Of a stretch of 59,245 bases of DNA, positions 1 through 37,500 are shown piece after piece. This stretch comes from a virus (lineage: Duplodnaviria > Caudoviricetes). The translations under genes and the position numbers were made by a program. The first letter of the stretch is position 1; the number at the start of each line of letters is the position of its first letter. The stretch is taken from positions 1 through 59,245 of the IMG/VR virus record IMGVR_UViG_3300021093_000083, one strand, 5' to 3'. A model generated the notes under the pieces. It worked only from the letters and a program-made list of their open reading frames with translations, was not told where the DNA came from and did not search any database.

Positions 1-111
1 GAGCTGATGCGTTTGGTAGGCGATCAGATCGAAGAAAACCTCTCTAGCTATAGCGACGAGGAACTGATTGATGAGGTTGGAGAATACTATCCTGAACTGT
101 TGGAAGATTGA
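1..111 (+). CDS. 3' end of small acidic early-region hypothetical protein (partial)
   Basis: Manual translation of frame 1: ELMRLVGDQIEENLSSYSDEELIDEVGEYYPELLED*, TGA at 109-111; next ATG at 115. Confidence 0.7.
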   Translation, partial: ELMRLVGDQIEENLSSYSDEELIDEVGEYYPELLED

Positions 112-114
112 ATC

Positions 115-255
115 ATGCACAAGTCCACTCTAGATCTATTCTCAAACCATGAAGATGAACGCAACGAGATAGATGATGCGTTCGATTCTGCACTTGAAGA
201 AAGAGCTGCAGAACTAGAAATCACTGTTGACTATTACATTGCCGAGTTTCTCTGA
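115..255 (+). CDS. 46-aa acidic hypothetical protein (cyanophage early-region type)
   Basis: Manual translation MHKSTLDLFSNHEDERNEIDDAFDSALEERAAELEITVDYYIAEFL*; packed 3 nt after the previous stop and 2 nt before the next start; below the ORF-track cutoff. Confidence 0.7.
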   Translation: MHKSTLDLFSNHEDERNEIDDAFDSALEERAAELEITVDYYIAEFL

Positions 256-257
256 TC

Positions 258-443
258 ATGAAAATCATCACCAATTCCACTCCCGCTGATACTTTCTACT
301 TTAACTTTGACCTGCGTGATCTTCAATCAAGACTGCAAGATGAAAATACAGCATTTGTAGAAATCTCTCTGTTTCGCTATTACATTGCTCTTTATCCTGA
401 TTGTATTCAATGGGGTAAAGTAGATGAAGATGGTTATCTTTAA
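258..443 (+). CDS. 61-aa hypothetical protein
   Basis: ORF track; ATG start, tightly packed with upstream ORFs. Confidence 0.65.
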   Translation: MKIITNSTPADTFYFNFDLRDLQSRLQDENTAFVEISLFRYYIALYPDCIQWGKVDEDGYL

Positions 444-5357: not shown

Positions 5358-5840
5358 ATGGGAGCTTGTCGTCCAGCAGGGTTAGTAGTAGGAATGTGTA
5401 CAGGGCATGGAGTTTGTATTCCTGCTGCTGTTCACGCAACAGGTCCACCTTGTAAGCCTCCGCTGCCATTAGCAGCTAAAAATGCAACTTGTTTTTGGCC
5501 TCCATTGGTTACAGCACCTTTGGTGCCTTATCCAAGTCTAGTTTTAGTCAATGGAATCATTCCATTGAGAATGGGTGATGTTCTAGTACCACACCCAAGT
5601 CCATGTACGAATATCGTTCTGGTTCCATCTCCACCAGGAGCCCCAGTTCCAACTCCATGTGGTTGCAGTATTTTAACTGCAGAAGATATGGGAGGAGTTG
5701 GTCATACCAGAATAGTAAAAGCCTTGACAAAAACAGTGTTTGTTGAAGGTAGAAACATGGCAGCAGTCGGTGATCCTTTGGGCCCGCCATGTTTTAGTTT
5801 CATCGGAACAGGATCAGTAAACGTTTATGTAGGATTGTAA
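5358..5840 (+). CDS. gp5.4: PAAR-family baseplate spike-tip protein (T4 gp5.4-like), extended
   Basis: CTGHG; VLVNGIIPLRMGDVLVPH; GH...TVFVEGRNMAAVGDPL; IGTGSVNVYVG C-terminus. Confidence 0.85.
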   Translation: MGACRPAGLVVGMCTGHGVCIPAAVHATGPPCKPPLPLAAKNATCFWPPLVTAPLVPYPSLVLVNGIIPLRMGDVLVPHPSPCTNIVLVPSPPGAPVPTPCGCSILTAEDMGGVGHTRIVKALTKTVFVEGRNMAAVGDPLGPPCFSFIGTGSVNVYVGL

Positions 5841-12200: not shown

Positions 12201-15200
12201 AGGTCAGAGTATTGAAATTTTTGGAGCTTCTCCAGCAATATATAATGGATCATTTACAGTGGAAAATCTTTCTTCAACTAATGCAAAAACTTTCGACTAT
12301 AATTTAAATATTACAGAAGATCAGTTTAATTCTTTAATATCTACATTTCCATCAGCTGTAGGTGATATTTACTTATCAATTCCACTAGAAAAAGGAAAGT
12401 CCGATTTTAGACCTATCGAAAGAATTATTTCAGAATCAACCGCTGATGTTCAAAATTGTTATTTAACGGATGATTATGTCTACGTTGCATCATCTGGAGT
12501 ACCATCTTATCCCATTGGATTGACCGGCGGGGAAAGGGGATTTTTGGGTAATTCATTGCTTCCAGGTAATCAAAGATATCTGAAAAAATTTCCAAAGCAA
12601 ACTCAAGTTGTATCTGAAAAAAAAGTAACAGAATATGGTCAGTTGGGGTTATTCTTAAATGGTGTTCCTCTTTACAATTATAAATCAGATAAAAAGATTA
12701 AATTTGGTAGTATATCACGAATAAATGTTTTAAATTCTGGTAGTGATTATGATGTTGAATTTGATCCTGAGATTAATGTTTATAAAACAATTCAAACAAT
12801 CACAGGTTTACAACAAATTAAAAATCCAGAGGGAGTATCTTTAAAACCAATAGTTAATGGTAGTCTCAGAGAAATTGTAGTTTTGAATGGTGGATCTGGA
12901 TATACTGAACCTCCAATCTTAACAGTATCTGGCGGGGGTGGAACTGGCGCGTTTGCTACAGCTGTTTTATCTGGAGGAAGAATTTCTAGAGTTGTTGTAG
13001 ACTCTCCTGGATCTGGTTATTTCCTAAAACCAGTAATCAACATTGTAGGTGGTGGTGCAGGATCTGGTGCTGTTTTAGATGCTGTAGTTAGAGGTCCAAT
13101 TAGTTCAATCAGGATTGATAATCCTGGACAAGGATTTCAAGAAAATCCAGATATTGAAATTACTACTGGATCTGGTGGTAGAGCTCAAGCTATCATTCTT
13201 AATGGAAAAGTTAGAAGTATTGGCGTTCTATCTGTAGGATCAAATTATACTACACCACCCTTGGTAGTAATTACAGACAAGAAGGGAAAAAATGCTTCAG
13301 CAAAAGCAATAATTTATACTTCGGGTGTTAATAAAGGATCAATAGAAAGAATTGAAGTATTGAATGGAGGATCTGGATATAATAAAGATACCGTAAAGGT
13401 AGAAATCATATCTATTGGTAATGGTGCTTCATTTAGTTCGGAAATTTTTGAATGGACATTTAATATCAATACTCAACTAGAAGGTAAATTTGATCCTAAG
13501 GATGGATATGTTTTTATTGGAAAAAATAATCAATTTGGTTCTGAGTATGCTCATACAAAAAATCCAAGATTTTTAAGATATCTATTGGGAGATAGTGTTT
13601 TATATAATGAAGTATTAAATACTATAACTGAACTTCCAATACAACAAGTAACCAGACACTCTCCTATTATTGGATGGGCATTTGATGGAAATCCTATTTA
13701 TGGTCCATATGGATTTGCAAATCCAGCGACAAACCCAGGAACAAATACAAATTTTATCCCAATGAAGAGTGGATGGAAGTTAAAAAATGATAGATTAAAT
13801 GGACCATCTACCACTACATATCCATTAGGTTCTTTTGTGGAAGATTATGAATATAGTTTAACTACTGGAGTAACTTTAGATAGATATAATGGAAGGTTCT
13901 GCAAAACTCCAGAGTTTCCAGAAGGAGTTTATGCATACTTTGTAACTATTACTGGTACAGTAAGTTCTATTGCAGAATTTCCATATGTAGTAGGAAATGA
14001 ATTTTATTCTGTACCAGATCAATTCAATTTCCAAGCAAATGCACTACAATCTAATTTACCGAAGGACGTAATTAGATATAGAACTCCATATGAATCTACA
14101 GATATTGATGTAGTTAGAAAATCTTCTGATATCAATTCTTCTCTATCAACAGAAGACAATTCATTTAATTTCATATTAGAAGATTCTCAAATTATTACTG
14201 GATATGACCAAGATGGAAATCCAATTTATACTACTTTAGAAGGTTATGATATTAATGATGATACTTTCATCACTGATGACGAATTAAATCCTATTGAATT
14301 TATTGAAGAGTCTGATATTGAAATTTATAATTATTTCCCAACTACAGAGGGAGACGCTAAAGTTGATATTAGAATTTCTAATGTAAATAAATTTGAAACT
14401 TCTATTTTAGAAGGATTTACCATTGAAAATGGAGGTCGAAACTTTAAGGTTAACGATACTCTGATTTTTGATACTAGTGAAAGTGGTGGTAATTTACCAT
14501 CAGCTAAAGTTTCATCAGTTACTGGAGAAAATGTTAGCGAACTAACTTTTGTATTTGAAGGTAAAAAACCATATGCTAAGTTAACAACAACTACTGATCA
14601 TGGATTAACATATAATGATAAATTTAAAGTTGAAACTCAACCAGAAGCTGAAAGTCAGATACAATATCAACCAAATTCATATAAAGTCAAAGTAGTCAAT
14701 GGTATTGAAAGAATAGATGTAATTAGTTTTGGTGCTGATTATGATCCAGAAACTCAAATTAACTATAGATTCTTCAACAGAGTTCTAGATAATATTAAAG
14801 ATGTTGAATTGAATTCAATTGTTGATGTTGGTGGATCTCTCAAATTTATAGAAGTTAAAAATTCTGGATCTATGGGTCTTGATGTTTCTGAAGTAAAACT
14901 TTCTCTTGATCCTCCAACTAATGTAACAAGAACTGTTTTTTATAACAAGAAAATTAAAAATGATAGAACGGCTGAATTAGAATTGCCAGCTGGATCACTG
15001 GAGAATCTTGAAAAGGATCAAATTATTTCAAATGATATAGTATTAGATACTAATGAAATACAGTCAGTAACATCTGCAAATATCAGTGGAAATAATTATA
15101 AAGTTACAATTACAACAGTAGATAGTAATTTAATTACATCTGGTAAAAAAGTTTTAGTATCGGGATTTAATAATTATACATCTTTAAATGGACTTAAAAC

Positions 15201-18200
15201 GGTAACTGATACAACTGGAAATTCATTTAGTTATACAGTAACTCAAGCTGGACTGCCATCAACTATTGAGGTAGTTTCAAAAGACTGGGATCAGATTTCA
15301 TCATCTCAGAGTGGAGCTCATACATTAGCTATCAAACAAGATAAATCTCTCTGGGCTTGGGGTCAAAATAGTTTTGGTCAATTGGGAACTGGAAACAGAA
15401 CCAGAAGAAAAGTTCCATTCAAGGTTAGTTCTAGTCAGTGGATTGCAATTTCTGCTAATGGTAACAAATCACTTGCTATTAAGTATGTTGACAACAACTC
15501 CTATGGAACTCTTTGGGCTTGGGGCCAGAATAGCTTTGGCGAACTAGGAATTAATTCTACAGATCCATATAAAACATCTCCAGTCCAAATTGGAACATCA
15601 AACTGGAAAAAAGTATCATCAGGCGTTAATCATGCTCTTGCTATTATGTCTGATGGAACTCTTTGGGCTTGGGGTAGAAATAGTTTCGGTCAATTAGGAA
15701 TTGGATCAACAACAGATTATTCATATCCAGTTCAAGTTAGCACAGACACTAATTGGACAGAAGTTCATGCAGGTTCTTCTATTAGTGCAGCAATTAATTC
15801 TTCTGGTAAACTATTTGTTTGGGGAGATTCTAGAAATAGTTGCCTTGGATTAGGTAAAATTGCTTCTATCAGGATTTTGAATCCTGGTAGGTCTGGAACA
15901 TTTACTGCAGAGTCAACTGTTAATTTTGAATTATCTGGTGCTAGTGGTAAAGTAGTATCTTGGAACCCAACAACTAGATTATTAATTCTTAAAAACTTTA
16001 CATATACAAATGTTCCAACTAGAGATGAAAAACTCTATATTGGATCTGATGTATCAACAAGTGTAAATTATGGAAGATTGAGATCTATTGTAATTCATGA
16101 GTTAGATGATTTTGGTTCTTCTTTAGAATTTATACTAACTCAAGGCACTGGAGTATTTTCAACTGGAGAAACGATAACTTCATCTAGAGGAGTTACAGCT
16201 ACAGTGGTTTCTTATGATTCCTCAACGAAAAAAATGAAAATCTCCAATAGGTCTGGAGAGTTTATTAGAAATGATATTGTAACAGGAAATAGTTCTGGTG
16301 CAAAACAAACATTTAATCGTTATACACCTCAATCTGGAACTAGAATTCTAGTTCCAACTCTTATCAATGATTCGACATGGACAAAGGCATCATCTTCTAA
16401 TAGATCTACGTTTGCTATTAAGGACAATGGAACTCTTTGGTCTTGGGGAGATAACTTCTTTGGCAATCTTGGAACGGGGGATTTATTTGACAGAAACATT
16501 CCAACTCAGATAGGAACTTCTACCACTTGGTCAGATGTTTCAGCTGGATCATATCACGTTTTAGGTATTAATGATTCGGATCTGTATGCTTGGGGCAGGG
16601 CGTCCAGTTATGAATTAGGAAACGGATCTTTAGATACTAAGTTAGCTCCAGTAGAAATAACAGGAATTACTGATATTGGAATAATAGAAGCTGGAAACTC
16701 TTCTAGTTTTATCATTAAAGATATGAGTGGAACTGATGCTCCGTTATTAGTATTTGGTAATGCAACTCAAGGCAGATTGGGAAATAATAAGATTAAGGGT
16801 CTTGTATCTACTCCAACTGAGATTCAGTCAATTTCTGTAATTTTAAACCCAGAATCTACAATTGTAGAGAGTTCAATCTTTGCAATTAACAGTACTAACA
16901 GTATTGTTGAGGTATCTAATATTGTAAATTCTTCAGGTCAATATCCAAACAATAGTGAGTATCTTGATGATGATATTATTGAAGTTGTTAAGGATAATGA
17001 TGAATTAATAATTGATCAAAAAATTACTCAAGTTTTAACAAATAATGTACTTCCATTCTCATCTTCAATAAGATTAAATAATTTAAATAATGTAGAAATT
17101 GGAAAATTAATTAGAGTTGTTTCGGAAGAAAAATCTTTTAATGCAACTGTTAAAGATATCAATTCTGTATTGACTCTGACTGAAGTTCCGAGTTCAACTG
17201 AAATTTATGCTGGTAATAAAATTACTTTCCCAGTTAACAATAACGCCACACCGCCGGTGGCCGTAGTAAGAGAATTTCTGGTAACTGGCGTTTCTAAGAA
17301 AGGATCTGTGACACTATCAATTTCACAGTATACTGGAAATGATACTAATATTGTTACAGCTACTGTTTCTTCTACAGCTGGAATTTCTGTTGGCGATGAA
17401 CTTTATATTTTTGGATCAACAGCAGATACAAATCTGAATGGAACTTGGAACATTATTGCAGTACCAAATTCAACAACATTTAAATTTGGAATCACTTCTC
17501 CATTAGCAACTGGATCATATTTAAGTGGACTTGGAACTGCTATTAAATCAATATCTGGAACAACGACACTAAATGTTTCTCTTGATATGCCTGTAAGTGA
17601 ATATCAAAATACTTCAACAATCAATGGAAATCTTGATGCACAGGTTGCAGTAACTATTCCATCATATTCTCTATTTGATGAAGACATGATTGTTGTTTCT
17701 GATATTGATTCTCAGTCAAATTCAATTTTTGTAAGAACATTAATCACTGGTAAATCCAAAACTACATCTAATCCAATATCTTTGAGTGATGTATCTATTA
17801 GTATGTACAGTGTAACTTTAGAGGGGGATCAAAATGAATATGATTTTGGAAACTATAACAGCACATTTTTTGTTGAAAATACTTTCTCAAATCAACAGTC
17901 TGTAAAATACATTGCATCAAATACATCAACACCTATTAATGGATTAACATCAGGCAATATCTATTACATTAAGAATGTTACAAGATATAGTTTTTCTCTA
18001 TCTGCAGAAGTTGATGATGTAGAGACTATAACAGTTACTACAATTCCATCAACCTCAATTCATAGATTTAGATCTGTTATTAGAAGAAAAATTCAAAATT
18101 CTTCTTATGCTCAAAATAAAATTAATTATACCACAACATCTATTGATAAAAATGAAAATCTATATGCCTTTGGTTCAACATTTGATTCTCAGGGAACAAA

Positions 18201-21200
18201 ATGCATAACATTCCATAAATTCGATAACTCAGGCGAATTGAAGTTTGAAAGTTATTTATTAATTCCAGAAGCTGAAAGAGGATCTGGCATAACACAAGGA
18301 ACATTTCAAATTACAGCTTCTAAATCATTCATCAAAAATAATGATTTATATCTACTTGTAGAAACTGTATATAGACAAATTTCTTCTACGTTAGTAAAAG
18401 ATTTAATCATTATTAAATATGATATTTCATCAGAGCAACCATTAAAACTATCAACTAGTGTTTTATTATCTAGTGGATCTTATGCAATATCTCCGATTGG
18501 AATTTTTGTAGAGGAGTTTGAAAATAGAGAAATTAATATTATTTCAAACATATTAAATCACCCAGGATCTGAAGATAAAGAATCTATTTTACTTCTAAAG
18601 GTAACGGAAGATCAACCAACAAACATCAATACTTTAAGTTTTACTTCAACAAACACATCAGTAAAACTAAACAATGCATTAACAAATTCAAATACCATAT
18701 TCTTATCAAATACTTTCTATGAAAATCAACCAGTGGTATATACATCATTCTTGCCTATTGGTGGATTAGAATCAAATACTGTTTATTATATAATTAACAA
18801 TGACAACGAGAAATTTAAATTGGCAAAAACTCCATCTGGAGCTCCAGTACAGTTAACTTCTTTGGGTGATAATTTATTGAATGCACATACCATTTCTCCT
18901 GTTCTTATTCCATCATATGATATTTCTCTGCAAAGAAGAATTTCTTTTGATAATGAATTATCTATAGATGATATTGCATACCAACAAATCAGTGTTTCTG
19001 CAAAATCTTTTGATGTAAATGAATCTAATTTTGTCATCTCATCCACATCTAATAACAAACCCTATTTAATTAAAATAAACAAATCTACTTTTAGTGTAGA
19101 TTTGATCAAAGAAGTATCTGGAATTACATCTTCACTGAATAAACATTTCATTAAATTCAATCAATTTAATGAAATATATTTTGCTTTCAACAAACAAATA
19201 GTTAGACTTGATATTAATGGAAACGTTATTAAACAAGTAACAATTCCATCTTATACATCAAATCATGAAGTATCTTCTTTATTCTTTGATTATTTTGATA
19301 ATGTAATTGTCATTTTAAATGATAACAGCGGAAATAACAGTAAAGTTGTTGTCAATTATTTTGATTATAAACTTGATTATTTGAAAACACAAACTATATC
19401 AGAATCCGATGTAAATATTTTAGTTTCATCTTCTGTTTTAGATTTATACAACAGTATATATTTTACTATCACAGAATCTACAAATAATTTCTATTCATAC
19501 ATTTATAGAACATACAAAGAACTTCAAAATAATACTTCAAACGATATTACGATGTCTAATTCGACATCATTAATCACTGAATCTAAACTTGACAATTTTA
19601 CAATTTCATTCACAGATAATTCTAATATCATCGGCCGTCAAGGAACACAATTTAGTAATTTCTCTATCACTGATATTAATATCTTTGACACTGATTGTCC
19701 TAAATCTTATCAACTATCTTCTACTTTTGCAGATATTTTTTCAGAAAAAGTATCTACTAAAGGATCAAAACCTGTATTTGATATTACTTTAAACAAAAAA
19801 TATTATATTGAAAAAGATGCTATCCAATTTATTTCACCAGTAGTAACTTACCAATTAAATAAAACTGTAAACTATCCTATAGGATCTACAGTTGTATTTA
19901 CGGATAATGAAATTCTATCAAATACTTATTCTGGTGTAATTTTAGATAAAGGAATACAAACCTTAACAGTTACAGAATTTTCTTCATCTAATCCAAGTCT
20001 CATACAAAATATTCTTGATAATTCAAATGTTAAACTTAAAAATGAAAATCCATTCTACAATTCTAAGATTAACAATACATTTGTAAATTCTGAAAAAATA
20101 GAAGCTAAATTACAAATTTCAAATATTACTGCAGATTCTGTATTTTTACCAGGCGATACTGTTGAATTTTTAACTCCTGCTACTGGAAATACATTTGTTT
20201 ACAGAGGAAAAGCAACAATACTTTTTTATAACGAAACAACAAATGTAATTTCATTTAAAAATGTATTTGATGATGGAATTTCAGAGTCTACACGAGTTAG
20301 AATTACTAAGACCATAGGTGGAGAGAATACAGTAACAGCTTTTGCTGAGTTCCTTTATGCTACTGACTGGGATTATGTTGATAAATTTGAATTTGAAATT
20401 CCATCAGAATATGAAGATGATTATATTTTTGAATCTGATAATATTACAAATGGATCTATAGTTTCCATAAAGGTTGTTAATTCTGGTACTGACTATACTG
20501 TTGCTCCTAGCGTAATCGTTCAAAATCAACCTGGAGTAAATGGTAGTGGTTTAATAGCAATAGCAATTCTAAATGCAAATGGAGGAGTTGATAGAATTCT
20601 AGTAGAAAATGGTGGTGCTAAATTTACTAAAACACCAAACATCATTCTTTTGGGTGGAGACGGACAGGGAGCCACAGCAAAAGTTACAAGAATGAGATTT
20701 GTTAGTGAAGTTTATACAATACAAGTAATAGACAGAGAACAGAATTTAGATTTAACAAGTTCTACATCTTATGATGATGTTGAACTAGGAGATGTTATTA
20801 CTCAAACTTCAACTTCTGCATCTGGAATTGTAGTTTCTAAAAATAGAGATCTTATAAGGGTTAAATTGTCAAATCAAAGTAGATTTGACACTTCCGCAGT
20901 TTCTATATCTGGAGTTAGAACAGAATCTACTTATTCTGCCACTAATGTTGGTATAACTTCGGTATCACCTTGCGTATTTTTCAGTGGTGAATCGACCACT
21001 ATGAAATCTGTATTAGATGAATATGATGGTAATTACGTAAATCAATTTTATCCACAATTAACTGTAAATTCTAATGATATTATTTCTATTTCCAGACTAT
21101 ATGGTGTAAGTAAGATAAACTTAATTACACGATTGTTTGAATATGTTTATCAAATATCTGGTGAAGATCTAGTACATGAAGATAAAATCTTCATTAAAAC

Positions 21201-24200
21201 TACGGATGACCATAACTTAAGAGAAAATTCTTTGGCATCTCTGATCCTTCCACCTACATACTCTCAGATTAATTTAGTAGATCAAATTCTTTCAGAAAAT
21301 GAATTTATCTTTAGACTATACAATATTGACTTAAATAATTTACCACATAATAAATTTAATTCTTCTACATCCGAACTATATTACAAAACTCCATCATTTA
21401 ATATGGTGTATGGACATTCCTATAGATTTGATGTATCAGATTTTAGCAATACTGGAACTTTATTGAATTTCTCTAGAGATGATAGTAATAGAGTTGTATA
21501 TACCTTTAATAATGTTGTAAGAAATAATATTGTCCCTGGTCAAGTTGGATCATTTGTTGATTTTGTGGTTGAATCTAACGCTGGACAACTATCATATTAT
21601 TTCAATGAAGCTAATTCTGATGGTAATAATTTTGTACTACCAGATTCTACTATATCCCTAAGAGAAACTCCCTATAATGGAACCTTTAGAGTCCATAGAG
21701 TACTGAATGATACTCAATTACTATACCCATTACCATACAAACCAGAATGTGATGCTTTTGTTTTATCTGGTAATGAAAATACTACAAAATATCTATCATA
21801 CTCAGAAACTTCTTCTGGATCTATATCGGAAATTTCTATATTTAATAATGGTGGATACTTTAAAGTTCTTCCAAGAGTATCTGAAATTTTATGCCCTAGA
21901 AAAATTGAAAAGATTGAAATTTTAAACGGAGGAACAGAGTACGAACCTGGAATTTATAGAGATGTTCCTATTTCTGGCGATGGTGTTGGTGGATTAGTTG
22001 ACATCACAGTTACTCCAGAAATAATAATAAATGATCTTGATGAAGAAATAATTACAGGTAGAATTACACAAGCAGTAGTTATAAACCCTGGTGAAAGATA
22101 TACTGAAGCCACTATTAACATTGTTGATATTCCAGGAATTCTTGGATCAGCTTCAAATGGATCTGGTGGACAACTACAAGTTGTTATCCCGCCACCTGGC
22201 ACTGGAAGTAGCGTTCTTCCATATAGCGAAAAGGTTGGAAGTATTAGAAAACTTTCTAATCTAAATGTTGGTTTTGACTATACTCATGATTATACTCTAA
22301 AACCACAAATTAAGTTTCCAATATCACTACAATTAGTAAATGCTAAAGTCATTTCAGAAATCTTAATTGATGATCCTGGATTTGGATACACATCTACTCC
22401 TATCATTCTTATTGAAGGTGGCGGTGGATCTGGTGCTGCAGCTGTTGCAACAGTTAAAAATAATAGAGTATCTGGCATTGAACTTGTTAGTGCAGGTTCT
22501 GGCTATTTCTCTGAACCAAATATTATCATTCAATCAAAAATTCCATATGTAGTTAATTTAGATCTTAATTTAATTCAGTTTAAAGTTCCTCATGGAATTC
22601 CTAATGCATCTACAATTAAGTTAAGAGCTGACGTAGTAGATGGAAATAATAACGTAATACTGCCAATTGTTAATTATCCTGGTGGTATGAATAATTTAAT
22701 AGATCCTGATAATAGTGTAACTGGAGCATACCAAACTACATTATCTTTATCTGCTATTGTAGGTGAAAGTAATGGATTACTTCCAAATCAACTTAGAATT
22801 GCTATTAATAAAAACGAAGCTCTATTAAACAACTATTTGAACTTTATTACTACTGGATCGCCAACCCAATTCTTATTAACAGAAGTTTTTGGAGCAAAAG
22901 CAAGATCGGTTCTAAAATCATCTCAGTTCTTAGGTAATGAAGTTATTAATCAACTCGAATCTCAAATTGTAAATGGTGTCGAACAAGAAGTAATTACATG
23001 TGTTTCAAAAGTTCTTCCCAATTCTGGTTGGATTTCTGGACCTAATATTTTAAGATTAAATGTTTTAGAGGGTGAATTTGGAATAGGCAAAAAAGTAGTA
23101 GGTTTATCCTCAGAGTCATCTGGTATTATTAACAAAATTATTTCTGCTAGTGGATTTGGTGAAATTGGATCTACATCTACAATCGATGGGAAGTTTTATG
23201 AAGAAACTGGTAAATTGAGTTCTATCTCTCAAAGATTGCAAAGTGAGTATTATCAAAATTTTGCATACCTTATAAAAACTACAACTCCATCAGAAGACTG
23301 GAGAAATCTTGTATTAGATAATTTACATCCAATTGGATTCTCATTATTCTCTGAATATTCATATGAAACTAATAGTTCTCTACCAAAACTTAAAGCATCA
23401 ACAGCATTTAGTAGAGATATTTCTGTTGACGCTGCTCAGAGAAGAGGATCTAGAATTTTTTCGCCAGGGTACGTCGAAGATGTTCTTAATCTAAATGAAG
23501 TTTCTGTAGTCGGTAAAAAACTTATTACGTCTGAAAATATTATCACATCGTTTGTAGAAAAGATTGTAAATATTTCTGATAACTTTGATGGAGCAACAAC
23601 TACTTTTGATCTACAAGTTAAAAGACTTATTACTAATCTAGATGGTAGTACTACAGAAGTCATAGATGCTGTTAGAAGCAATGAAAGATTCTTGATGATA
23701 TTCTTGAACAATACTCTACAATCTCCAGATTCTTATGTGTTCTCAAATGGACAAATTACATTTGATGAAGCTCCATCTGCTAGATTAGTATCAAAAAGTA
23801 GAAACGTTAAATTTACTAATCTATATCCACCAGTAGGAAAGTTTGTTCAAGATGAAAAGTTATACGTCGTAAGAGTAAAAGAATTTAATATTGATGGAAT
23901 AAATATCTGGCAACAGACAGTAATAATTCAATCTTCTACTAATCCAAATATTAAAATTGGAGATACTGTAAAACAAAGTGATATCAATGGAGTTATCACT
24001 GAAATCGGAGTTGTATTTGAAAATAGTATCTATACTGTAACTTTAGTTGTCGTATTCACTACAACTGATGAGACAATTATATCCCCTGAGAGGGATCTTA
24101 AAGTATTTTATAATAATGAAGATCTAATAGGAACAACTTTTGATGTTACTTATGTAAGTACAAATCAAATAGCTGATCTAAGACCATTTAAATTTGATAT

Positions 24201-27200
24201 CCTTGAGGGATCTGAAGTCGTTAATGATAAAGTTGATATCTTTTCATATCAAAATCTCGAACAAGAAAGAGAGTATTCTGTAAATATATCTGCATATAAA
24301 ATTAACGACAATCTAAATCAACTGTCGGAGGATGCTCGAATAATTATAAGATTATTTGATTTTGAGTTTAATCAATATAAAGTAGATGAAACTTCAAATT
24401 ACGTTACATTGTCTAATGATGAATTGGGACCTTTCATTCTATCAAGCAACGCAAGTACAATTTCTCCATCTGATAGTAAGACAGATTTAGCTTATGATGT
24501 AAATGAAACTAATCTGTCAATTAGATCAATTTTTACATTTGATAGTTTCTTAAACTATAATCAATCAACACCATCTTTAGTAGAATTAAATGTTGGCGAT
24601 GTTTTAACATCAACAGTTAGTAAAGGACTTGCAACTGTAGTTTCTGTGAATGAAGTTACAAAAGAAGTTGAAGTTTCTATAAAATCAAATATTAATAATC
24701 CATTCATTAATGAAAATGAAACGCTTCAATCTAGAACAACTCAAGGTGAAATTATAGAAGGCAATCTAACAAACTTTGTTTTCTTTACAACTCAAAATGC
24801 AAAATATAAAGTAACTAAGATTAGATTCAAGAGTGATGATGACAATACATTTACTGATGACAATACTCCTTTACCAGTAGTTCTTACAAATGATCTATTA
24901 ATTTCTAAAACTTACGGAACAGCTAATAATCAAGATTCCTCTTCTATTTTCCTTTCCTTAAATGATTTAGTGGTAGGTGAAAAGAGCAGAGCTTCATGCA
25001 AGATTACTGAAATAACTAGAATTAATAACATCAATGAAGTTGAAATTAGTCCAGGCACACTATTTACTGGATATATCTTTAACAGAGTTAATAATCCAGA
25101 TAATCCAAACGTATCATTAACTGATATATCAAAATCTTATATTGTTCCATTTAATAAATTAGAATCTTATGGAAGTTTATATTACAAAGAAATAGAATCT
25201 TCTAGACTTTTATTAGATGATTATCTCTATAATGAGTCTATTGGAGATAGATTCAAGTCAATTCAACTTGATGTTGAATATGGCAATTCTTATGAATTTA
25301 ATGTAAACGATACATTAGAAATAGTCAGAGTATCTGTTGATGTCGAAGAAGCAGGTAGTAGATTTAGAGATGGTAGCAATCTAATAAAAGCAAACCGTCA
25401 AGAAATTGTTGACCGTGCAGCAGCTGAAATTGCTATTCAGTTCCCTGATTTCTCCTATCCTGGTGATCCAATAACAACTGCTGTATCTAGATTTAAAGAT
25501 GCTTATCGTCTAATCCAACTAAACAGAACAGCAATTATTGATACTGCTTTTGCTGCAATTGCTCCTGCGTTCCCAACTTTTGTTATCAACGCAACAAATA
25601 CAGATAAGTGTAAGAGAGATATTGGTATCTTCGTCGATTCTATATCTCTAGACATCGCTCAAGCTGGAGGAAACGTATATACTCGTAAATTTGTTCTTTC
25701 ATATTTTAATAGCAACACTCCTATTACTAATGGTCTTGTAGGAGAAGAAGCACAATCAAATGTTGCCTTTAATGCGGCTTGTGAAGAAATGAAAAAAGCA
25801 GTCACAAACCAATTAGCAATTACAGATCTAACCATCACTCCTGGTGCTGCTACCTTTGGCGGCGGCGGTGGCACTATCCCCAACAATAGCGTAAATGCTT
25901 GTGCTGATGTTCGTTCTGCACTTGATAGTTTAACACTTATCGTAACAACTCGTATTGCTGCTGGTAATATAACTGGTCTTCCTGCTGAATCAGTATCAAC
26001 TACTGTTCCAGCTGGAGAAGCTAAGTGTAAGAGAGATATTGGAATTATTGTTGATGCTGTAGTAGAAGATTTATTTAGAGGATCTAATGTCAATATAATT
26101 GAATCTACAAATGCTTATTTCAATAACGGTACTCCTATTAGTAATGGATTAGTAAATGAAGAAGCACAATCTGTAGTTGCTTTCAACAAAGCTCGTGATG
26201 TAATGAAACTGGCAATTAATAACCAGTTATTTGTTAAAGATTTAACAATCCAAGGAGATTATCAGGTTAGTTTCTCGAATACAGACCCTGATGGTTGTGC
26301 TAATGTCAGAGCAATGATTGATACTCTAATATCAATTATTACAACTACAATTACAGCAGCTGATCCAGATCTGTTGCCAGATCCAAACCCAGGAAGAGCC
26401 TTTGTTGCCGGCGAATTAGTAACAATTTCTGATGGTACTACAACATATGAGTCAAATGTATTAAGTTCAGATAATGTAAATTATATTATCTCACTTGAAA
26501 ATATATATCAAAATGATCAAATAGTAATAAATACTGAATTATTAGATCTTACTGGATATACTGTTTCTACTAATAGAGGAGCTTCCAATATAGAAATTGT
26601 AGCTCCAGTAAAAGATCTTGATGTTACGAGAACAACTGTAAAATCAAGAACATATGATATTACAACTAAGTTTACTTTAAATAGTATAACTGGACTTTCT
26701 GTTGGACTAACAGCAACTCAAGGATCTATAGTAGGTAAAGTAGTAGACATTATTGCAAATGATATTTATATCAATCATGCTTCATATGACACTGAAAATC
26801 ATTATGTGACTGGAAATATAGTATTTAATACCATACCTGCAATTACTAAATCTGTTACTGCTAACCCAGCAAATAGAGAAACTATTTACTATATTTCTAC
26901 ATCAGAAATTGTCCCTCAAATTAATAAGTATCAACCTACTCCAGGCACCATTCATTCGTATACTCCTTGGAATGATCTTTATGATGTTCTTGATAATAAT
27001 AGATCATTTATTATTGATTATGTTTATGAGTTAATAATCACTGAATTTGCATACTTATCTAATAAGAATACAATAACCATTGGAAGTTGTAAAAATGATC
27101 TTGCGTTAGTGTTAAACGCAATTATAAATGATATTAAACTTGGTGGAAACTATAATACAGTTCTTGCAACTAGACTCTATTTTGATTCTAATAATGAAGT

Positions 27201-30200
27201 GAACTTCCTTAAAGGTGAAGTTGAAGAATCTATCTGGTCTTACTCAAGATTAAAAGATTTCATCAAACTATCTTCTAGAAATTTTGAAGTAGTACATACT
27301 TGCAACCTAGTTAATACTCAAAATTATATTGTCGTTTCAGATCCTACTGGAATTGTTAGAGGAATGCTAGTGACTACGGATCAATTTAACGTAGATATCT
27401 ACGTTAAGTATGTCAGTGGAAATAAGGTATATCTAATGACAGAATCTTTCACTGATTACATATTAGTTGGAAACTATTCTGCACAAGAGGTAACATTTAA
27501 TTTTGATAAGTTTAAAGTTAATCCTCAGTTTGTATCCGTTCTTTATAATGTTCCTATACAATATTCTTCAGATGTAACTAGTTCTACCATTTTAGATCAA
27601 AATATTTCAGACCTTGTTGATGTATTATTAAATGCAATAAATCCAGATTCACTAAGAGTCTATAAGGATGCTGTTATTGAATTATTAGAAACATATGAGG
27701 ATGTTATCGATGATGTATATAATGATCTTAAGGTACAGTTTGATAACTTAACTATTCCAAATGATAATCTAGACAAGTGTCAAAGAGACATGAAGGTTGT
27801 TTCTGAGTCTGTATTTGACGATTTGAAGTTTGGTGGTAATGTTAATACAATTAGAACATCAGAACTCTATGTTAATGGCGGTTCTCTTTCTCATGTGGAA
27901 ACTGAACTTATTGAAACCGCATATGCTTTCTTCAAGTTAGAAATATCTTATAAAGAAATTATTAACAATAGTACAAACTATACTACTCAAGAAAAGACTG
28001 ATATCCAAGAAAGAATTACAGAGTTGTTCCAATTATTGATTAGTAAGATTACGAATGATGCTACTGGAACTGTTCAGGATGCTGCTGCTCAAATTGCAAG
28101 AAATGAGAGGTTTATTGTTGATGAAGCTTTCTTAATTACACTAGATACACAACCAACGGCATTCTCTCAATCTGAAATAACTCAGTTGTATTCATATGCT
28201 TATTCAGTAGTCAAATCTACAATTAAAAATTTACTTTTAGGAAGCAATGAATATGTATTAGATGCATTAACTGCTTTAGGTGCAACTTCTTCTTTCTATA
28301 GTAATTCATCTAAAAAATCTTTTGTTCAAAACTTCTTCACTAGAGTTATAAGTTTATCAAAACTATCAACGATTAATTTCTATATTAACGCTGCAGAGGA
28401 TCAATATGTGGTCCAAGAAAGTGTTCTTACATACAAAACAGACCTTACCATCTCAGTTGACCCTGCAGGATGGTCCTACTGTCAATCAGTACACAATACA
28501 TTAGATACTTTTGGTATTATAATCAATAATTATTGGACCAATCTATCTTTACCAGATGTGAGCATTGTTGAATTTACATATTTCCCTAAGAGATTGTATC
28601 CTGAAAATTACGTACAACGTCCTATAACCAGCTCTATTTCTGAAAATGATCTATGCATCTTAAAATCATCTACTTTAACTAAGACTGCTTTTGTAAATGC
28701 AATTGATTCTGGAATAACTAAAATTTATGATCTACAAAAACGATTTGATCTTGATGATGAAGATGGTACTATTGAAAAATCTAATCTTGTTGGTAGCTTT
28801 GTAAATACATCAATCTCAGTAACATTAAAAGATATAAATGATAATGGATCAGTAAATGTTTCTATTACTGGAAATGGATCTAATATTTCTGTTGGTCAAA
28901 CTTTCACTCAAGATAATGGTTTCTCTTCAATAATCGAATCGATTTATAACGTATACATTCTTAAGAATGTATACGGAAATTTCTATAAAAATAACTATAT
29001 CTTTGGAATAGATTCTGGTTCAACATCAAATTCTTATATTAGTTCATTTGAAAGAAATACAGCCGTTATAGAAAAATCAATTGGAGATAGACTGATCTTT
29101 GATAGTACATCTGTAGTAGGATCATTTACTTTATATGATTATGTTTATGTAAAAGATACTACATACGAATCTAATGTTGTTTACACTTATCAAGGATTTA
29201 ATGGTCAAAGAACTCAATTCCCTCTAATTGTAATATCTCCAACAGGAGACATTCAAGATTACTACCCATCAGTGGAAGATTCTCCAATAATTGTATCCAT
29301 TAATGGAGTCATTCAAGAATTTGATAATGACTATACAACGTCATCTAATTTTATAACTTTTGATAATCCTCCAACTAAGGACGATGAATGTCTAGCTGTT
29401 TACTATGGTAAGTGGAGAAAGATTGACAACATCTCTCCACAGTTTGATGGAATCACTCAAAGTTTTGGTATGGAAATCGGAGGATTGCCATTTGCTATTT
29501 CAGTTTTTGGTAATGCAACAAATATTATTGTCGATAGAAACTGTTTATTTACAGTAAACGGAGTAGTTCAAGTTCCTCAAGAAGGATTTACTGTAGATGG
29601 TTCTAGAATTAGATTTTCTTCTGCTCCAAAACCAGGATCCAGTTTTGTTGGTTATGTATATGTCGGTTCGGCTATTGACGTTGACTCTATTGAAGTTATT
29701 CCTCAAATTGAACCAACTGATATTATTAGATTAAATAAAGAGGATACAAATAGGATTGTTGCGACAGTCGATAGCTTATCTTCAGTTACAACATTTGAAT
29801 ACCCTGGAGAGAAGATTGGAAGAATTGCAGCTGGAACTGCAACTATAAGAACAGGCAAGATAATTGGAGCCTCTTTGACATCAGGTGGTTCTGGTTATAT
29901 TAGAAGACCAAAAATTAAAATCAATTCATCCAGTGGTGATGAAGCGAAATTGACAGCTCAACTTGGCGTATCAAATGTAGAAGTCATTAACGCTGGGTCT
30001 GGATATCTAAAACCATCTGTACAAGTAATTTCAACTACTGGAACTGGATTTACTGGAGAAATTTTATTTGAACCAGATTCAAATAATACTCAGAGGATCT
30101 CAGTTATTAAGATTATTAATAGTGGATTTGGATATTCATCAACAGATGAAGTTTCTATATCTAATGTTGGAAATCCAGAAATCCCAGTAGAATTTAAAGT

Positions 30201-32959: not shown

Positions 32960-34477
32960 ATGACCGCTTTAATTACTGATCAGTTTAGGATCTTTTTGTC
33001 AAAACAATTCATATCATCTTTTGATACTCAACAAACAACTCCAGATTCTTTATACGTTTTTGTGGGAAGACCACAACCTTGGGAAGATTCTACTGGTGGA
33101 GACTCATCTCCACCAGATCCAATAGATAGTTTTGAACAGTATTCAGATGTCTATGATGATATGGTTGCTATGAAGAGGATTTTGCCAACAGATATTTTAC
33201 CTGTGGTAAGGAGAATTAATTGGATTCCGCCAGAACAAACTACGGGTGGATTAGGATATACATATGACATGTATAGACACGATTATTCGATTTATAATCC
33301 TGCTGCTAGTGGAGCTACATCTTTATACGATGGAGACTTCTATGTAGTTAATAGTCAATATCAAGTTTTCAAATGTATTTACAATGGAACTTCTCCATCA
33401 GATCCTAATGGAAAGCCATCAACAATTGAACCAACTGGAACATCCAATGCAATCATCACTACGTCTGATGGATATAGATGGAAGTATATGTATACTTTGA
33501 CGGTTGACCAAATTATTAGATTCTTATCTAGAGATTATCTACCTGTAATTCAAGATACTGCAGTTTCCACCAATACAAGTAGTGGTGAGATTGATACTAT
33601 TTTGATTGTAAATTCTGGAAGCGGTTACAATAATGGAGTTTATGAAAACATACCTATTAATGGTGATGGAAAAGGTGGAAGAGTAACTATTGTAATTGAT
33701 GGTGGTAAAGTATCTCAGGTTAATGTATTGAATGGAGGAAGTGAGTATTCCTTCGGTCAAATAGATGTTGATGGAATAACTGGTATTGGTGCTGGTACTG
33801 GAGCTCAAGTTAACGTTATTATTCCGCCTCAAGGTGGACATGGAAGAGATACGTTAACTGAATTGGGAGCTTTTAGAATTCTTATTAATACCAAATTTTC
33901 ATATGACGAAGGTCTTGGTGACTTCCCAACAGACAATGATTTTAGACGAATTGGATTAATTATCAATCCATTAGTAAGAGGAACTAATACTATTGCAACT
34001 TCTTTGACTTTTAGTTTAACAAAAGCTATTGCATTTCCATTGAGTTTTACTGGATCTTTTACTACAGATGCTACTATTCAACAAACAAGAATAGTTGGAA
34101 CAACATCTATAGTTTCTAGAGGAGTTGTTGTTTCTTGGAATCCAATTACAAAAGTTCTAAAGTATTTTCAAAACAGAGTCAAGGGTATTTTCCCAGAAGG
34201 AACTGGACCTTTGAATGAGTTTGTTGGATCAGAAAACGTATCTATCCCAGGAGGAACTACATCAGTTTCACCAGACGTAGCATTCCCTGAAATTGATAAC
34301 ACTAGTACTAGAACTGTAGATGGTAAAAACTATAATCTAGGACAGAATTTTACTCAGGGTTATGCTCAACCAGAGATAGAAAAAAACTCTGGAAAAATTA
34401 TCTATATAGATAATAGAAGACCAATTGTTAGATTCCCTGACCAGGTTGAAGACATTAAAATCATTATCGAGTTCTAA
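32960..34477 (+). CDS. gp8: Baseplate wedge subunit gp8
   Basis: MTALITDQFRI; YVFVGRPQPW; YDMYRHDY; FYVVNSQYQVFKCIYN; DGYRWKYMYT; C-terminal SGKIIYIDNRRPIVRFPDQVEDIKIIIEF. Confidence 0.95.
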   Translation: MTALITDQFRIFLSKQFISSFDTQQTTPDSLYVFVGRPQPWEDSTGGDSSPPDPIDSFEQYSDVYDDMVAMKRILPTDILPVVRRINWIPPEQTTGGLGYTYDMYRHDYSIYNPAASGATSLYDGDFYVVNSQYQVFKCIYNGTSPSDPNGKPSTIEPTGTSNAIITTSDGYRWKYMYTLTVDQIIRFLSRDYLPVIQDTAVSTNTSSGEIDTILIVNSGSGYNNGVYENIPINGDGKGGRVTIVIDGGKVSQVNVLNGGSEYSFGQIDVDGITGIGAGTGAQVNVIIPPQGGHGRDTLTELGAFRILINTKFSYDEGLGDFPTDNDFRRIGLIINPLVRGTNTIATSLTFSLTKAIAFPLSFTGSFTTDATIQQTRIVGTTSIVSRGVVVSWNPITKVLKYFQNRVKGIFPEGTGPLNEFVGSENVSIPGGTTSVSPDVAFPEIDNTSTRTVDGKNYNLGQNFTQGYAQPEIEKNSGKIIYIDNRRPIVRFPDQVEDIKIIIEF

Positions 34478-34500: not shown

Positions 34501-37500
34501 ATGTCACAAAATACTAATCTGAACGTAGCTCCATATAATGATGATTTCTCAAAAGATAAGAATTTTCATAAGGTTCTCTTTAGACCTGGATATCCAGTAC
34601 AAGCTAGAGAACTAACAACACTCCAATCAATTCTACAAAATCAAATTGAAAATATAGGTCAACATTTCTTCAAAGATGGAGGAATGATTATTCCTGGTCA
34701 ATTGAGTTATGACTTACAATGTCATGCTATTTTAGTACAATCAACTTTCCTTGGTGCAGCAGTAGAGTCATATAGAAATCAATTAGATGAAATAGAACTT
34801 TATGGTATTAAATCTGGAGTTTCTGCCAAAGTTCAATTTAGTATTTCTGCAAAAGAATCAACGAAGAAGTTTATTACTTTATATGTAAAGTATATTGCTT
34901 CTGGTCAAGACAATGTAACTAGAAGATTTGATGATAATGAAGAGTTATATGCTAACGTTGACATTACAATTGGGGGAAGACTTGTTGAAGCTGGATCTCC
35001 AATCCTCAAGTTAATTCCAAAAAAGTCTAGATACGTTGGATCTTGTGCTTATATTAATAGTGGAGTTTATTTCATCAGAGGATTCTTTGTTGATGTAGCA
35101 ATTCAAAGAGTTCTTCTAGATCAATATTCCAATGAACCGTCATATAAAATTGGATTTGATATTTCAGAATCTATTATCACTCCAGAAGATGATGAATCTT
35201 TAAATGATAATGCTTTTGGATCAAGTAATTATAATGCTCCAGGAGCTCATAGATTCAGACTAAGATGTACTCTTACTAAGAGACTTTTAGATGATCCTGG
35301 AGATAAAAATTTCTTAGAACTTCTAAGATTAGAAGAAGGTAGAGTTTTAAGACTCAATAAAAGAGAACCATTTTCTGAACTAGAAAGATCAATTGCCAGG
35401 AGAACATACGACACTCATGGCGATTACATGACCAAACCATTTGGTATTATGGTCAAGGAATCTTTAAATGATGGTCTTAATAATGGTGTATTTGAAGAAG
35501 GAGATACAACAGCTCAAGGAAATGCTCCTGGTGATGATTTGTATACAGTAGAAATTAGCCCAGGTAGAGCATATGTTCAGGGTTATGAGATTTCTACTGA
35601 TGCGCCAACATACTTAGATTTACAAAAATCTAGAGAAGTAGAAAAATTAACAAATCAAATTCTTCCATTTGAACAAGGAGATTACTTCTTAGTTAAGAAT
35701 TTGAGGGGACTTCCTTTTATAAGTAATTCTGGTGTTCTTGCAAATCATTATCAAACTATTGAATTTTATGATTCATTCTATGAAGATACCTTTGCTGAAG
35801 GTAGAAACATGGTTGGTATGGCCAGATGTATTGGTATTGATAGATTAGGTAATAACCAATTTAAGTTATATGTTGGTGACGTACAACTATTCACTTTGAT
35901 CAAACTTCAAACTGCAATTGATACAAATAATGAACTTAGACCACTATTAAGGCAGGGAGATGAAATCACTGGTGACTCAAGTAAGGCAAAAGGTATCCTT
36001 GCGTATGATCCAGATGAAAATATATTAAGAGTTTATCAAGTTGCTGGACAATTTATAAAAGGCGAAAGATTAAGAAGAGATGGATCCCTAATTGCATTTA
36101 GAGATGATGCTGAAAATTATAAGAGATCTCAAAATGTAACAGTACAAGGAGTATACAATTATGACTTTAGTGATGTCAAAAGACTTAATGGTACTTATAT
36201 TTCAGCTGATCAACAATTAGTAGAAGAATTCTATTGTGATACTTTTCTTTCTGATTCTTTTGCTGTACCTTCAGATAAAATTCAATTTGTAAAAGAACAA
36301 GAAGTAGTAACTCCTAGAACTATTACTGTAAACTGCGTCCAAGCTGAGGTAGTTACTACCAAATCGCCTGCTGCTAGAGTAACTCTACAAAGAGAAACTG
36401 TTCTTTTAGCTAGCCAAGATAGTAAGAGATATAAGCCTAATTCTTTTGTTAGAAACACTCAAAATTATTCTGTAACCAAAACTATAACTCCAAGTACAGG
36501 AAACGTAACCAAATCATGCGATTTTGTTGCCGGCAGTTCCACACTTGCAGTTGTTAGTGGTGGATTAACTGGAATCGAAGTTGGCAATAAAGTAACTGGT
36601 AATGGAATAAGTAATGGAACATTTGTAATTGCAACTTCTACTGTTGGTGGAGTTAATGTTGTCGATCTTAACCAAGCTGTTTTTTCATCTGGAAATAATG
36701 TATCTGTAACTTTTAGAGAATCAAAGTGTACTGTTAACAGCGCTACATCTCTAGCAGTAGGACAGAGACTTATTGGTAGCGGAATTCCTAACAATACTTT
36801 TATTAGATCTATTAGTGGCACCACAGTATTCTTGACAGATGCTCCTACATCTAATGCTTCTGTAACTGCAACATTTATTGTTGCAACTAAGTTTGCTAAA
36901 ATCATTCAAAAGAAAACAGAGAGAGTCAATATTGCAATTTTAGAAGACGAAAATAATACCAATAAGAAAGGTAAAAAAGTTAAGAAACCAGTCTTTAGAT
37001 TTTTTACTAAATTAGTTCTAGAATATTGTAACCATCTAGGGCAAACTTTATCAGTTCCTGAATCTGGAAGTTTTAATGTTAGTGATATTCTTTTTAATGT
37101 TCCTGCGATGTCTAACAACATTACGAGAAATGGAAGTTTGACTAATAAAAATTTCATGATTGTTAAAGGTCCATATGGAGCTAATCAAAGAATAAGAGCT
37201 GATTTTGACTATCAATTCTTTACTGAGAATAAAACATCTGATGATATTAGTACAAGAAGAGACACTATCAGATTGTTTGCACATGGATTAAGAACAGGAG
37301 ATATTCTTGAATATCAATTCTTAAGCGGTAAGTATGTTGGTACTAGAGCAAGTACAAACAACGGTCATAATTTCTTACAATCTGGAACTCAATACTATGT
37401 TATTAAAGTTGACAATAACCTTATCAGACTTGCCACCAACCTAACTAATGCTAATGCTAAGAGAGCAATTGATATTACAGAACAAACATATCAAGGAAGC

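Follow-up and report, generated by a model that had tools for sequence, protein, structure and literature searches.

How is a protein chain arranged when the first helices of a domain and the conserved cysteine motif of the same domain are parted by a complete second copy of that domain? The question is raised by a 59,245-nucleotide stretch from a virus of the Caudoviricetes (IMG/VR record IMGVR_UViG_3300021093_000083, positions 1 to 59,245; hereinafter the window), in which a giant open reading frame (ORF) of 7,903 amino acids (aa) contains a short module of two phycobiliprotein-like domains, A and B. A first-pass annotation made from the DNA letters had proposed that B was inserted into the loop of A just before the presumed chromophore helix. 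Our analysis favors this arrangement: with a probability of roughly 0.85, domain B is nested in the loop between helices B and E of domain A, which places two phycobiliprotein-fold domains in a baseplate protein at the gp7 position. We assign B to this loop because relatives of the module keep a balanced order of their structural elements and because the first helix pair of a nest diverges together with its last core.

Layout and fold of the module

We divided each unit into two elements, namely H, a helix pair of about 35 aa corresponding to phycobiliprotein helices A and B, and C, a four-helix core of about 135 aa that corresponds to helices E to H and starts with K-C-K-R-D. In the frame of the giant ORF, on the + strand, the module reads H(A)-H(B)-C(B)-C(A) over positions 25360-26403 of the window, equivalent to residues 5380-5727 of the protein (Table 1). 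Between the last residue of H(A), 5414, and the K-C-K-R-D cysteine of C(A), at 5602, lie 187 residues, in agreement with the approximately 190 aa by which the start of A had been said to be split from its own motif, and the complete domain B described in this interval was recovered as H(B) plus C(B) at 25489-26013. The alignment of A against B that had been suggested as a check gave 43% identity between C(B) and C(A) over 134 aa (BLASTP E 4e-23) and identity at 11 of 21 residues between H(A) and H(B) (E 1e-6). Both the H and the C elements are thus duplicated well beyond chance. In C(B), the K-C-K-R-D cysteine is at 25609, another cysteine at 25780, and a conserved cysteine directly before the last helix at 25900; the corresponding conserved positions in C(A) are 26026 and 26296. 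Judged by position, the two conserved cysteines of a unit mark the beginnings of helix E and of the last helix.

That these domains are phycobiliprotein-like, as the first-pass annotation had it, was borne out by profile searches. A 358-aa module matched PF00502 (25.0 bits, E 2e-5, cut-off 22.2) as its sole Pfam family. Of 44 non-redundant contiguous H-C units collected from relatives, 15 matched PF00502 at E<=0.01 and none matched any other Pfam family. A profile of these 44 units recovered 150 matches at E<=10 among PDB sequences, the best being CpcA (E 4.9e-5); of the 60 matches listed, all but one bacterial fluorescent protein are subunits of phycocyanin, phycoerythrin, phycoerythrocyanin or allophycocyanin (59 in total). 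With a 433-aa piece as single-sequence query, PDB gave no useful match (renin receptor, E 0.58); phycobiliproteins were reached by the profile alone. Subunit residues 35-103 are matched by profile positions 3-61, in an alignment that begins in the H piece (approximately 35-62), crosses the loop and enters the first core helix, with the phage Cys-x-Arg-Asp falling on the Cys84-x-Arg86-Asp87 bilin-attachment site of CpcA and phycocyanin beta. A PF00502 hit is also precomputed for 74 of the 120 listed longer homologues, all of them unnamed or 'hypothetical'. The phage domains are diverged members of the phycobiliprotein superfamily.

The 358-aa module was modeled with AlphaFold2 from a 39-row alignment cut as the central HHCC blocks of deeper nests, yielding a mean predicted local distance difference test score (pLDDT) of 89.8 and a predicted template-modeling score (pTM) of 0.90. 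The helices of the model fall at residues 2-17 and 19-33 in H(A), where the block pLDDT is 96-97; at 47-60, 62-71 and 73-76 in H(B); at 84-106, 112-119, 136-154 and 188-207 in C(B); and at 224-246, 250-257, 274-292 and 320-339 in C(A). Structural comparison with VIA-align returned phycoerythrin beta (5aqd_M) as the best match (Z 15.7, root-mean-square deviation [rmsd] 2.1 A, 140 residues), superposing model range 46..206, that is, H(B) plus C(B), on chain residues 30..184. All of ranks 1-8 are phycobiliprotein or ApcE entries, while other bilin-binding or globin-like sensors score Z 11.2 and below. In a Foldseek search of PDB, phycobiliproteins made up 38 of the 41 rows listed, with template-modeling (TM) scores of up to 0.76 on the target and E-values of 0.045-0.2.

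The aligned ranges speak to the topology of the module. As 140 aligned residues are unreachable without the helices of H(B), this helix pair packs on C(B) in the manner of phycobiliprotein helices A and B. Three globin chains align 128-145 residues over model ranges 2..342, 2..337 and 4..338, corresponding to H(A) plus C(A), and such a span requires H(A) and C(A) to belong to a single globin-like domain. No VIA-align match spans 46..342 or pairs H(A) with C(B) alone. The first-pass annotation had named, as an outcome that would speak against nesting, a first helix pair that does not pack with the segment at 26017-26380; the model ranges instead join H(A) to C(A). An independently predicted BFVD model of a homologue from cyanophage S-CAM1 matches the whole module with TM 0.86 and rmsd 1.9 A over 349 columns.

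Compared with phycobiliprotein subunits (PF00502), the phage units share the same helical fold from helices A and B through helix H, and the profile match covers helix B, the loop and helix E, including the Cys84-site motif. A further likeness to the beta subunits is the second conserved cysteine directly before the last helix, where the printed alignment is non-significant on its own; the second bilin cysteine of beta subunits is located at that place. The differences are equally clear. Sequence and structure alignments start only at subunit residue approximately 30-35, and the phage units therefore lack the N-terminal X-Y hairpin, which in phycobiliproteins makes the alpha-beta contact; their H piece of about 35 aa is instead preceded by another H or by unrelated beta-rich sequence. 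Whereas phycobiliprotein subunits are free proteins of 160-180 aa, the phage units occur by the dozen inside giant virion proteins, nested or in tandem, with an identity to the subunits of about 13-20%. A covalent pseudo-dimer reminiscent of an alpha/beta pair is accordingly not supported: the X-Y hairpin is missing, and the relatives are not confined to pairs, their storeys numbering 1 to at least 6 and, in one metagenomic protein, 10.

Pairing of helix pairs and cores in relatives

To read the order of elements in relatives we used hidden Markov models (HMMs) of H and C built from 70 IMG/VR loci with 10-kb flanks. These contain 74 ORFs with elements, 42 of which are closed at both ends, and in 37 of the 42 the elements follow a balanced-bracket order with equal H and C counts (e.g., HHHCCC, HHHHCCCCHC, HCHHHHHCCHHHCCCCCC and HCHHHHCHHHCCCCCC). 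The five unbalanced closed ORFs comprise two genes split in two pieces each, whose pieces sum to a balanced word, and the window itself, in which two divergent H elements fall below threshold with the separate HMMs; with a whole-unit HMM, the giant ORF parses as HHCC HC HC HC, that is, the nest followed by three increasingly degenerate plain H-C units. The split genes lie in IMG/VR contigs L112 (HHHCC + C) and L115 (HHCHHHCCC + C), and the split may reflect a real break, a frameshift or a sequencing error. Under the nested parse, the depth is one level in the window, up to 6 in the closed ORFs and 10 in the metagenomic protein P0127; an A1-B-A2 order is thus found in the window, with repeated levels, i.e., recursive insertion within a single family, in its relatives.

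The array also varies at a fixed position. A contig with the window's flanking sequence (L023/L094) has H3C3 in place of the window's H2C2, and in the S-PM2-type 'short tail fiber' proteins an array with n = 2, 3 or 4 interrupts one conserved N-terminal region, which fits an excursion of the chain whose ends meet. The window nest is the smallest case of a self-nesting grammar in the giant tail and baseplate proteins of cyanomyoviruses. Besides H^n C^n nests, these proteins have serial nests and plain tandem (HC)n arrays, and storey numbers differ among relatives at the same position. Two irregularities were seen beside these words. In several relatives, an orphan partial core, consisting of the lone cysteine-bearing last helix (HMM positions 89-126) without an H partner, precedes the outermost closing core (L080 residues 447-484 in the frame from base 1, the same contig as L009; L072, as L001 residues 1627-1662). 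In IMG/VR contig L119, H4 is followed by C, 548 aa, C C, 751 aa and C; these long unrelated stretches between cores imply that other domains can lodge between storeys.

Since H and C counts alone fit nested and interleaved pairing alike, we tested co-divergence in 40 unique top-level nests. If the elements were interleaved (first-in-first-out and domain-swapped), H(A) would complete C(B) and H(B) would complete C(A) in an intertwined pair. The distances of the first H, however, correlated with those of the last C at r 0.845 and with those of the first C at r 0.54 (bootstrap difference 0.30 [0.14-0.48], positive in all 2000 resamples), the respective partial correlations being 0.77 and 0.06 against backgrounds of 0.41 for first H versus last H and 0.61 for first C versus last C. 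In the 26 pure H^nC^n nests both ends favor nesting, with 0.908 versus 0.617 for the first H and 0.765 versus 0.625 for the last H. Interleaving is further at odds with the superposition of H(B) plus C(B) on a single phycoerythrin beta chain, with the lack of any structural match over 46..342 or for H(A) with C(B) alone, and with words such as HHCHCC, which keep an inner H-C contiguous as a plain unit where interleaving would split it. On its side stand the counts, the last (innermost) H of all 40 nests, which co-diverges alike with the first C (0.48) and the last C (0.465) and hence does not discriminate, and the sequence subtypes of H and C, which fit the two pairings equally: in plain units, the 'last-core' type accompanies the H type that stands directly before a core, as would be expected in interleaved nests too. 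Taken together, these data make interleaving quite improbable. An absence of any pairing, with the H elements as separate helical linker repeats and each C as an autonomous four-helix bundle, would suit the orphan partial cores and the many proteins of a wider set in which C calls outnumber H calls, and we regard it as the least probable of the alternatives: H and C are equal in 37 of the 42 closed ORFs, with the five exceptions explained, the best structural matches need H-piece residues to reach 140 aligned positions, the phycobiliprotein profile match is continuous from the H piece into the core, and a block pLDDT of 96-97 for H(A) is unlikely for an unpacked helix pair.

A different objection concerns the fold itself, which might be a generic globin-like helical bundle unrelated to phycobiliproteins, with Cys-x-Arg-Asp arising by chance or convergence. 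The individual statistics are indeed modest: the Pfam match has 25 bits and is borderline, as the inner unit alone reaches 14.5 bits (E 0.035); a Foldseek E-value of 0.045 is a weak similarity by that single measure; the NCBIfam model for phycocyanin alpha gives 19.8 bits against a cut-off of 269; and VIA-align cautions that helical models often score Z of approximately 13-14 against unrelated chains. A chance resemblance is nevertheless very hard to reconcile with the exclusive matching of PF00502 among the 44 units, the 59 phycobiliproteins in the 60 PDB profile matches listed, the phycobiliprotein-family entries that fill ranks 1-8 of VIA-align above other globin-like sensors at Z<=11.2, the alignment of the motif at the exact bilin-attachment position, and the Synechococcus, Prochlorococcus or Cyanophage names carried by 288 of 289 phage records with tblastn matches.

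Several further points weigh against our preferred arrangement, together with the non-discriminating innermost H, the uninformative subtypes and the modest similarity scores given above. The nesting topology was read solely from aligned ranges on the AlphaFold2 model; the alignment supplied to AlphaFold2 was cut from central HHCC blocks and so presupposes nesting; and the program may by habit favor the contiguous H(B)-C(B) pairing. In a wide set of 145 cluster representatives, only 42 proteins were balanced with the separate HMMs, 67 with the whole-unit HMM and 64 with merged calls, the merged calls having excess C in 78, equal but out-of-order elements in 3 and excess H in none; we think that the automated calls probably missed short, divergent H pieces. 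Overall, the position of B inside the loop of A before the cysteine helix agrees with the model ranges, the balanced H/C order and the co-divergence. As to the history of the arrangement, B may have been the piece that came in by insertion, as the first-pass annotation inferred.

In the nested form the chain would make the helix pair of A, then all of B as a continuous domain, and then return to finish A. As the chain leaves and returns, the module would have its two ends next to each other and could project from its host protein as a two-storey stalk. The same holds at any depth: with the chain running out along the H pieces and back along the cores, the ends of every nest come together and fit into a loop of the host protein. 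We infer that the nest acts as a rigid, length-adjustable projection on the baseplate or short fibers, for contact with the host cell, a kind of projection that differs from phage to phage in host-contact proteins.

Host gene, neighbors and family

The 59-kb fragment has approximately 31-36% G+C and comes from a virus record estimated to be 32% complete. The giant ORF lies between gp6-like and gp8 ORFs (Table 1), and a tblastn search with the 348-aa module as query found matches in 289 phage records, with at least 80% of the query covered at one place in 185; the first words of the organism names are Synechococcus (222), Cyanophage (56), Prochlorococcus (10) and Marine (1). As gp6 and gp8 homologues flank the giant ORF and nearly all tblastn matches are in cyanophage records, the source virus is a T4-like cyanomyovirus, and the nested module is common in that group. 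In PHROGs, the giant ORF matches virion structural, baseplate wedge or short tail fiber families, those for baseplate wedge subunits strongly, in parts; Pfam Baseplate_wedge (PF23786) matches its N-terminal part with 25.8 bits, slightly below the cut-off of 27. Like T4 gp7, the cyanophage ORF is encoded between gp6 and gp8 homologues; unlike it, the ORF extends to 7,903 aa with RCC1-like, YHYH and phycobiliprotein-like modules, whereas T4 gp7 is about 1,000 aa long and is not known to have such phycobiliprotein-like domains.

Table 1. Positions in the window of the nested module, the plain units downstream of it, the host ORF and the flanking baseplate ORFs
Feature	Position	Strand	Evidence or remark
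H(A), first two helices (A, B) of outer domain A	25360-25464	+	H HMM 58 bits
H(B), helices A and B of inner domain B	25489-25587	+	H HMM 45.5 bits
C(B), inner core, helices E to H	25606-26013	+	C HMM 150 bits
C(A), outer core	26020-26403	+	C HMM 154.5 bits
Third unit, plain un-nested HC	26992-27381	+	weak H at 26992-27069, E 0.046; core C-K-N-D at 27088, 59 bits
Fourth unit, plain HC	27706-28077	+	H very weak, E 4.5, non-significant alone; core K-C-Q-R-D, Cys 27778, 54 bits
Fifth unit, degenerate HC	28075-28548	+	H 14 bits; partial core 11 bits, HMM positions 10-114, without cysteine motif
Giant ORF, 7,903 aa	9223-32934	+	gp7 position of T4-like cyanomyovirus baseplate module; carries the nested module
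gp6-like ORF	7119-9197		upstream of giant ORF; PF21379 match, E 2e-16
gp8 ORF	32960-34477		downstream of giant ORF; T4 gp8 PF09215 match, E 8e-19

Within the giant ORF we also observed a YHYH domain (PF14240, residues 1442-1578, E 7e-23) and RCC1-like repeats (PF25390, residues about 1960-2246, E 3e-67), both unusual in a baseplate protein (window 9223-21222; ORF residues about 1442-2400). Two further giant ORFs lie downstream, both without H or C elements: that at 34501-46515 (4,004 aa) contains DUF4815 (E 5e-62), and that at 47058-53219 (2,053 aa) begins with Mtd_N, the N-terminal domain of the major tropism determinant (E 6e-12).

A unit profile searched against 1.84 billion proteins recovered 1,538 cluster representatives at E<=0.001, of which 1,097 are at or below 1e-10 and 561 at or below 1e-30, a single protein having as many as 36 matched stretches. 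Among the best 145 of the 1,538 representatives are many long plain tandem arrays, up to (HC)23, and others that are deep nests (e.g., H10 C7 H2 C5). Un-nested versions, which the first-pass annotation had suggested seeking in related phages, therefore exist; it had also held that homologues in simple tandem instead of nested order would count against nesting, and both orders occur among the relatives. A search for stand-alone proteins of unit length gave four hits of 193-312 aa, each on a single contig, which we take to be fragments, and no free-standing family. A single-protein scan of 185,579 species genomes, which detects close relatives only, returned no cellular relatives, a result that says little about whether they exist. 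The names given to homologues in BFVD are tail, structural or hypothetical proteins. Two homologues, P0036 and P0095, are labeled as 'Candidatus Nanopelagicaceae bacterium' genome bins; in both cases a phage contig was probably placed in the bin of a freshwater actinobacterium, which hints at the module in freshwater viruses. In the S-PM2 RefSeq record (L071), the coding sequence of a 'short tail fiber protein' is drawn across 15 transfer RNA (tRNA) genes that share its locus tag, which looks like an annotation mix-up over the tRNA cluster.

Possible bilin attachment, CpeT and the meaning of the nest

The conservation of the pigment-attachment residues raises the question of whether the domains carry a chromophore. 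Both cores of the window have K-C-K-R-D, and among 231 unique cores of relatives 216 have C-x-R-D, 12 have C-x-x-D and 3 have no cysteine. A loose motif for the second cysteine, before the last helix, is matched by 173 of the 231 cores; in the window model this cysteine is represented by residues 187 and 319, adjoining helices 188-207 and 320-339. In beta subunits, the cysteine-153 position is served by T-type lyases (PMC10452541). We compared the distribution of CpeT (PF06206) with that of the domain in 20 phage records, P-HM1 and P-HM2 among these being one species. CpeT is present in 12 of 14 domain-bearing phages (the exceptions being S-ShM2 and P-SSM7) and in none of the 6 phages without the domain (P-SSM2, P-SSP7, S-SM2, S-SSM7, S-CRM01 and S-TIM5), giving a one-sided Fisher p of 7e-4 that ignores shared ancestry. 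The gene that encodes the domain has cpeT on its own strand, 1-3 kb upstream, in S-PM2, S-H9-2, S-RIM32, S-RIM44, Syn1 and S-RSM4; the S-PM2 region with cpeT upstream of the phycobiliprotein-like nest is NC_006820 163952-167079.

Some CpeT matches are short or divided. In P-SSM4 (NC_006884 16642-17064), a 148-aa frame matches PF06206 with 37 bits, above the cut-off; a 2010 review states that cpeT is absent from this phage (PMC2984593). Short CpeT-like ORFs of 134-160 aa with a two-piece match were seen in P-HM1, P-HM2, S-SM1, P-RSM4, Syn33, Syn19 and S-SSM5, and a similar two-piece match in a 224-aa frame of Syn9.

The domain also coincides with the light requirement of adsorption in five phages. 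According to PMC6628666, darkness prevents adsorption of P-HM2 and P-HM1 but not of P-SSM2 and P-SSP7, and S-PM2 requires light for adsorption independently of photosynthesis (the last citing Jia et al. 2010). The domain is present in the light-needing adsorbers P-HM1, P-HM2 and S-PM2 and absent from the dark adsorbers P-SSM2 and P-SSP7.

Bilin binding by these domains is a tentative possibility, less likely than not. If it occurs, the bilin would attach at the Cys84-type site and perhaps also at the other conserved cysteine, which precedes the last helix; as this second position is that of the T-type lyase site, phage CpeT would then act on the phage's own baseplate and fiber proteins. Equally speculative, and rather unlikely, is the fuller proposal that the domains are chromophorylated in the virion, with the baseplate and fiber proteins as the substrate of CpeT, and that the stacked domains would serve as a light sensor or antenna gating adsorption. 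In its favor are the conserved C-x-R-D of the cores, the co-occurrence and synteny of cpeT with the domain, and the presence of the domain in the light-needing adsorbers and not in the dark adsorbers. Counting against a pigment are the two domain-bearing phages without CpeT, the small size of the sample and the relatedness of its phages by descent, and the absence of cpeT from the window record, a fragment. The bilin reductase PF05996 is likewise not associated with the domain in a comparison of 15 phages (4 of 12 domain-bearing versus 2 of 3 domain-less), phage bilin reductases seeming to follow Prochlorococcus hosts; and no report of pigment in virions was found in the literature searched.

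Two cellular proteins offer points of comparison for the nest. The bilin domain of ApcE (4xxi_A) is among the best structural matches of the module (VIA-align Z 13.6), and ApcE resembles domain A of the phage as a phycobiliprotein-fold domain that accepts a large insertion. The PB-loop of ApcE lies between helices B and E, the same loop as that of the phage insertion. According to PMC11789067, ApcE's alpha-APC domain tolerates a PB-loop of 50-70 residues and still binds bilin after removal of the loop. The insert of ApcE is, however, a loop, whereas that of the phage is a whole further copy of the same fold, repeated recursively. Recursion of this kind is known from the Si3 region of the cyanobacterial RNA polymerase beta' subunit (RpoC2), in which domains of one family are likewise inserted into each other; PMC13114784 describes for rpoC2 Si3 of Prochlorococcus a nested architecture six levels deep, built of hybrid-motif domains and with branching nodes. 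Si3 differs in its fold, a beta sandwich-barrel hybrid motif, in its host protein and in being cellular.

The module indicates that structural proteins of the virion have acquired the light-harvesting protein fold of the host. This is apparently undescribed in print, though PF00502 hits already stand on many unnamed homologues: no description of phycobiliprotein-like domains in cyanophage structural proteins was found in a search of the full-text literature, with subscription journals and supplements outside its scope, and AlphaFold surveys of freshwater cyanophages, in the parts available, present other photosynthesis-related folds and not a phycobiliprotein-like nest. The nests provide a second and very clear natural example of recursive self-insertion within one family, with a grammar that can be read from the sequence and plain tandem relatives for comparison. 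The retained pigment-attachment residues and the link to cpeT make the cause of light-dependent adsorption in some cyanophages and the purpose of phage cpeT testable. If true, the pigment proposal would account for the presence of cpeT in cyanophages and for the restriction of adsorption to the light, regardless of host photosynthesis, in some cyanomyoviruses.

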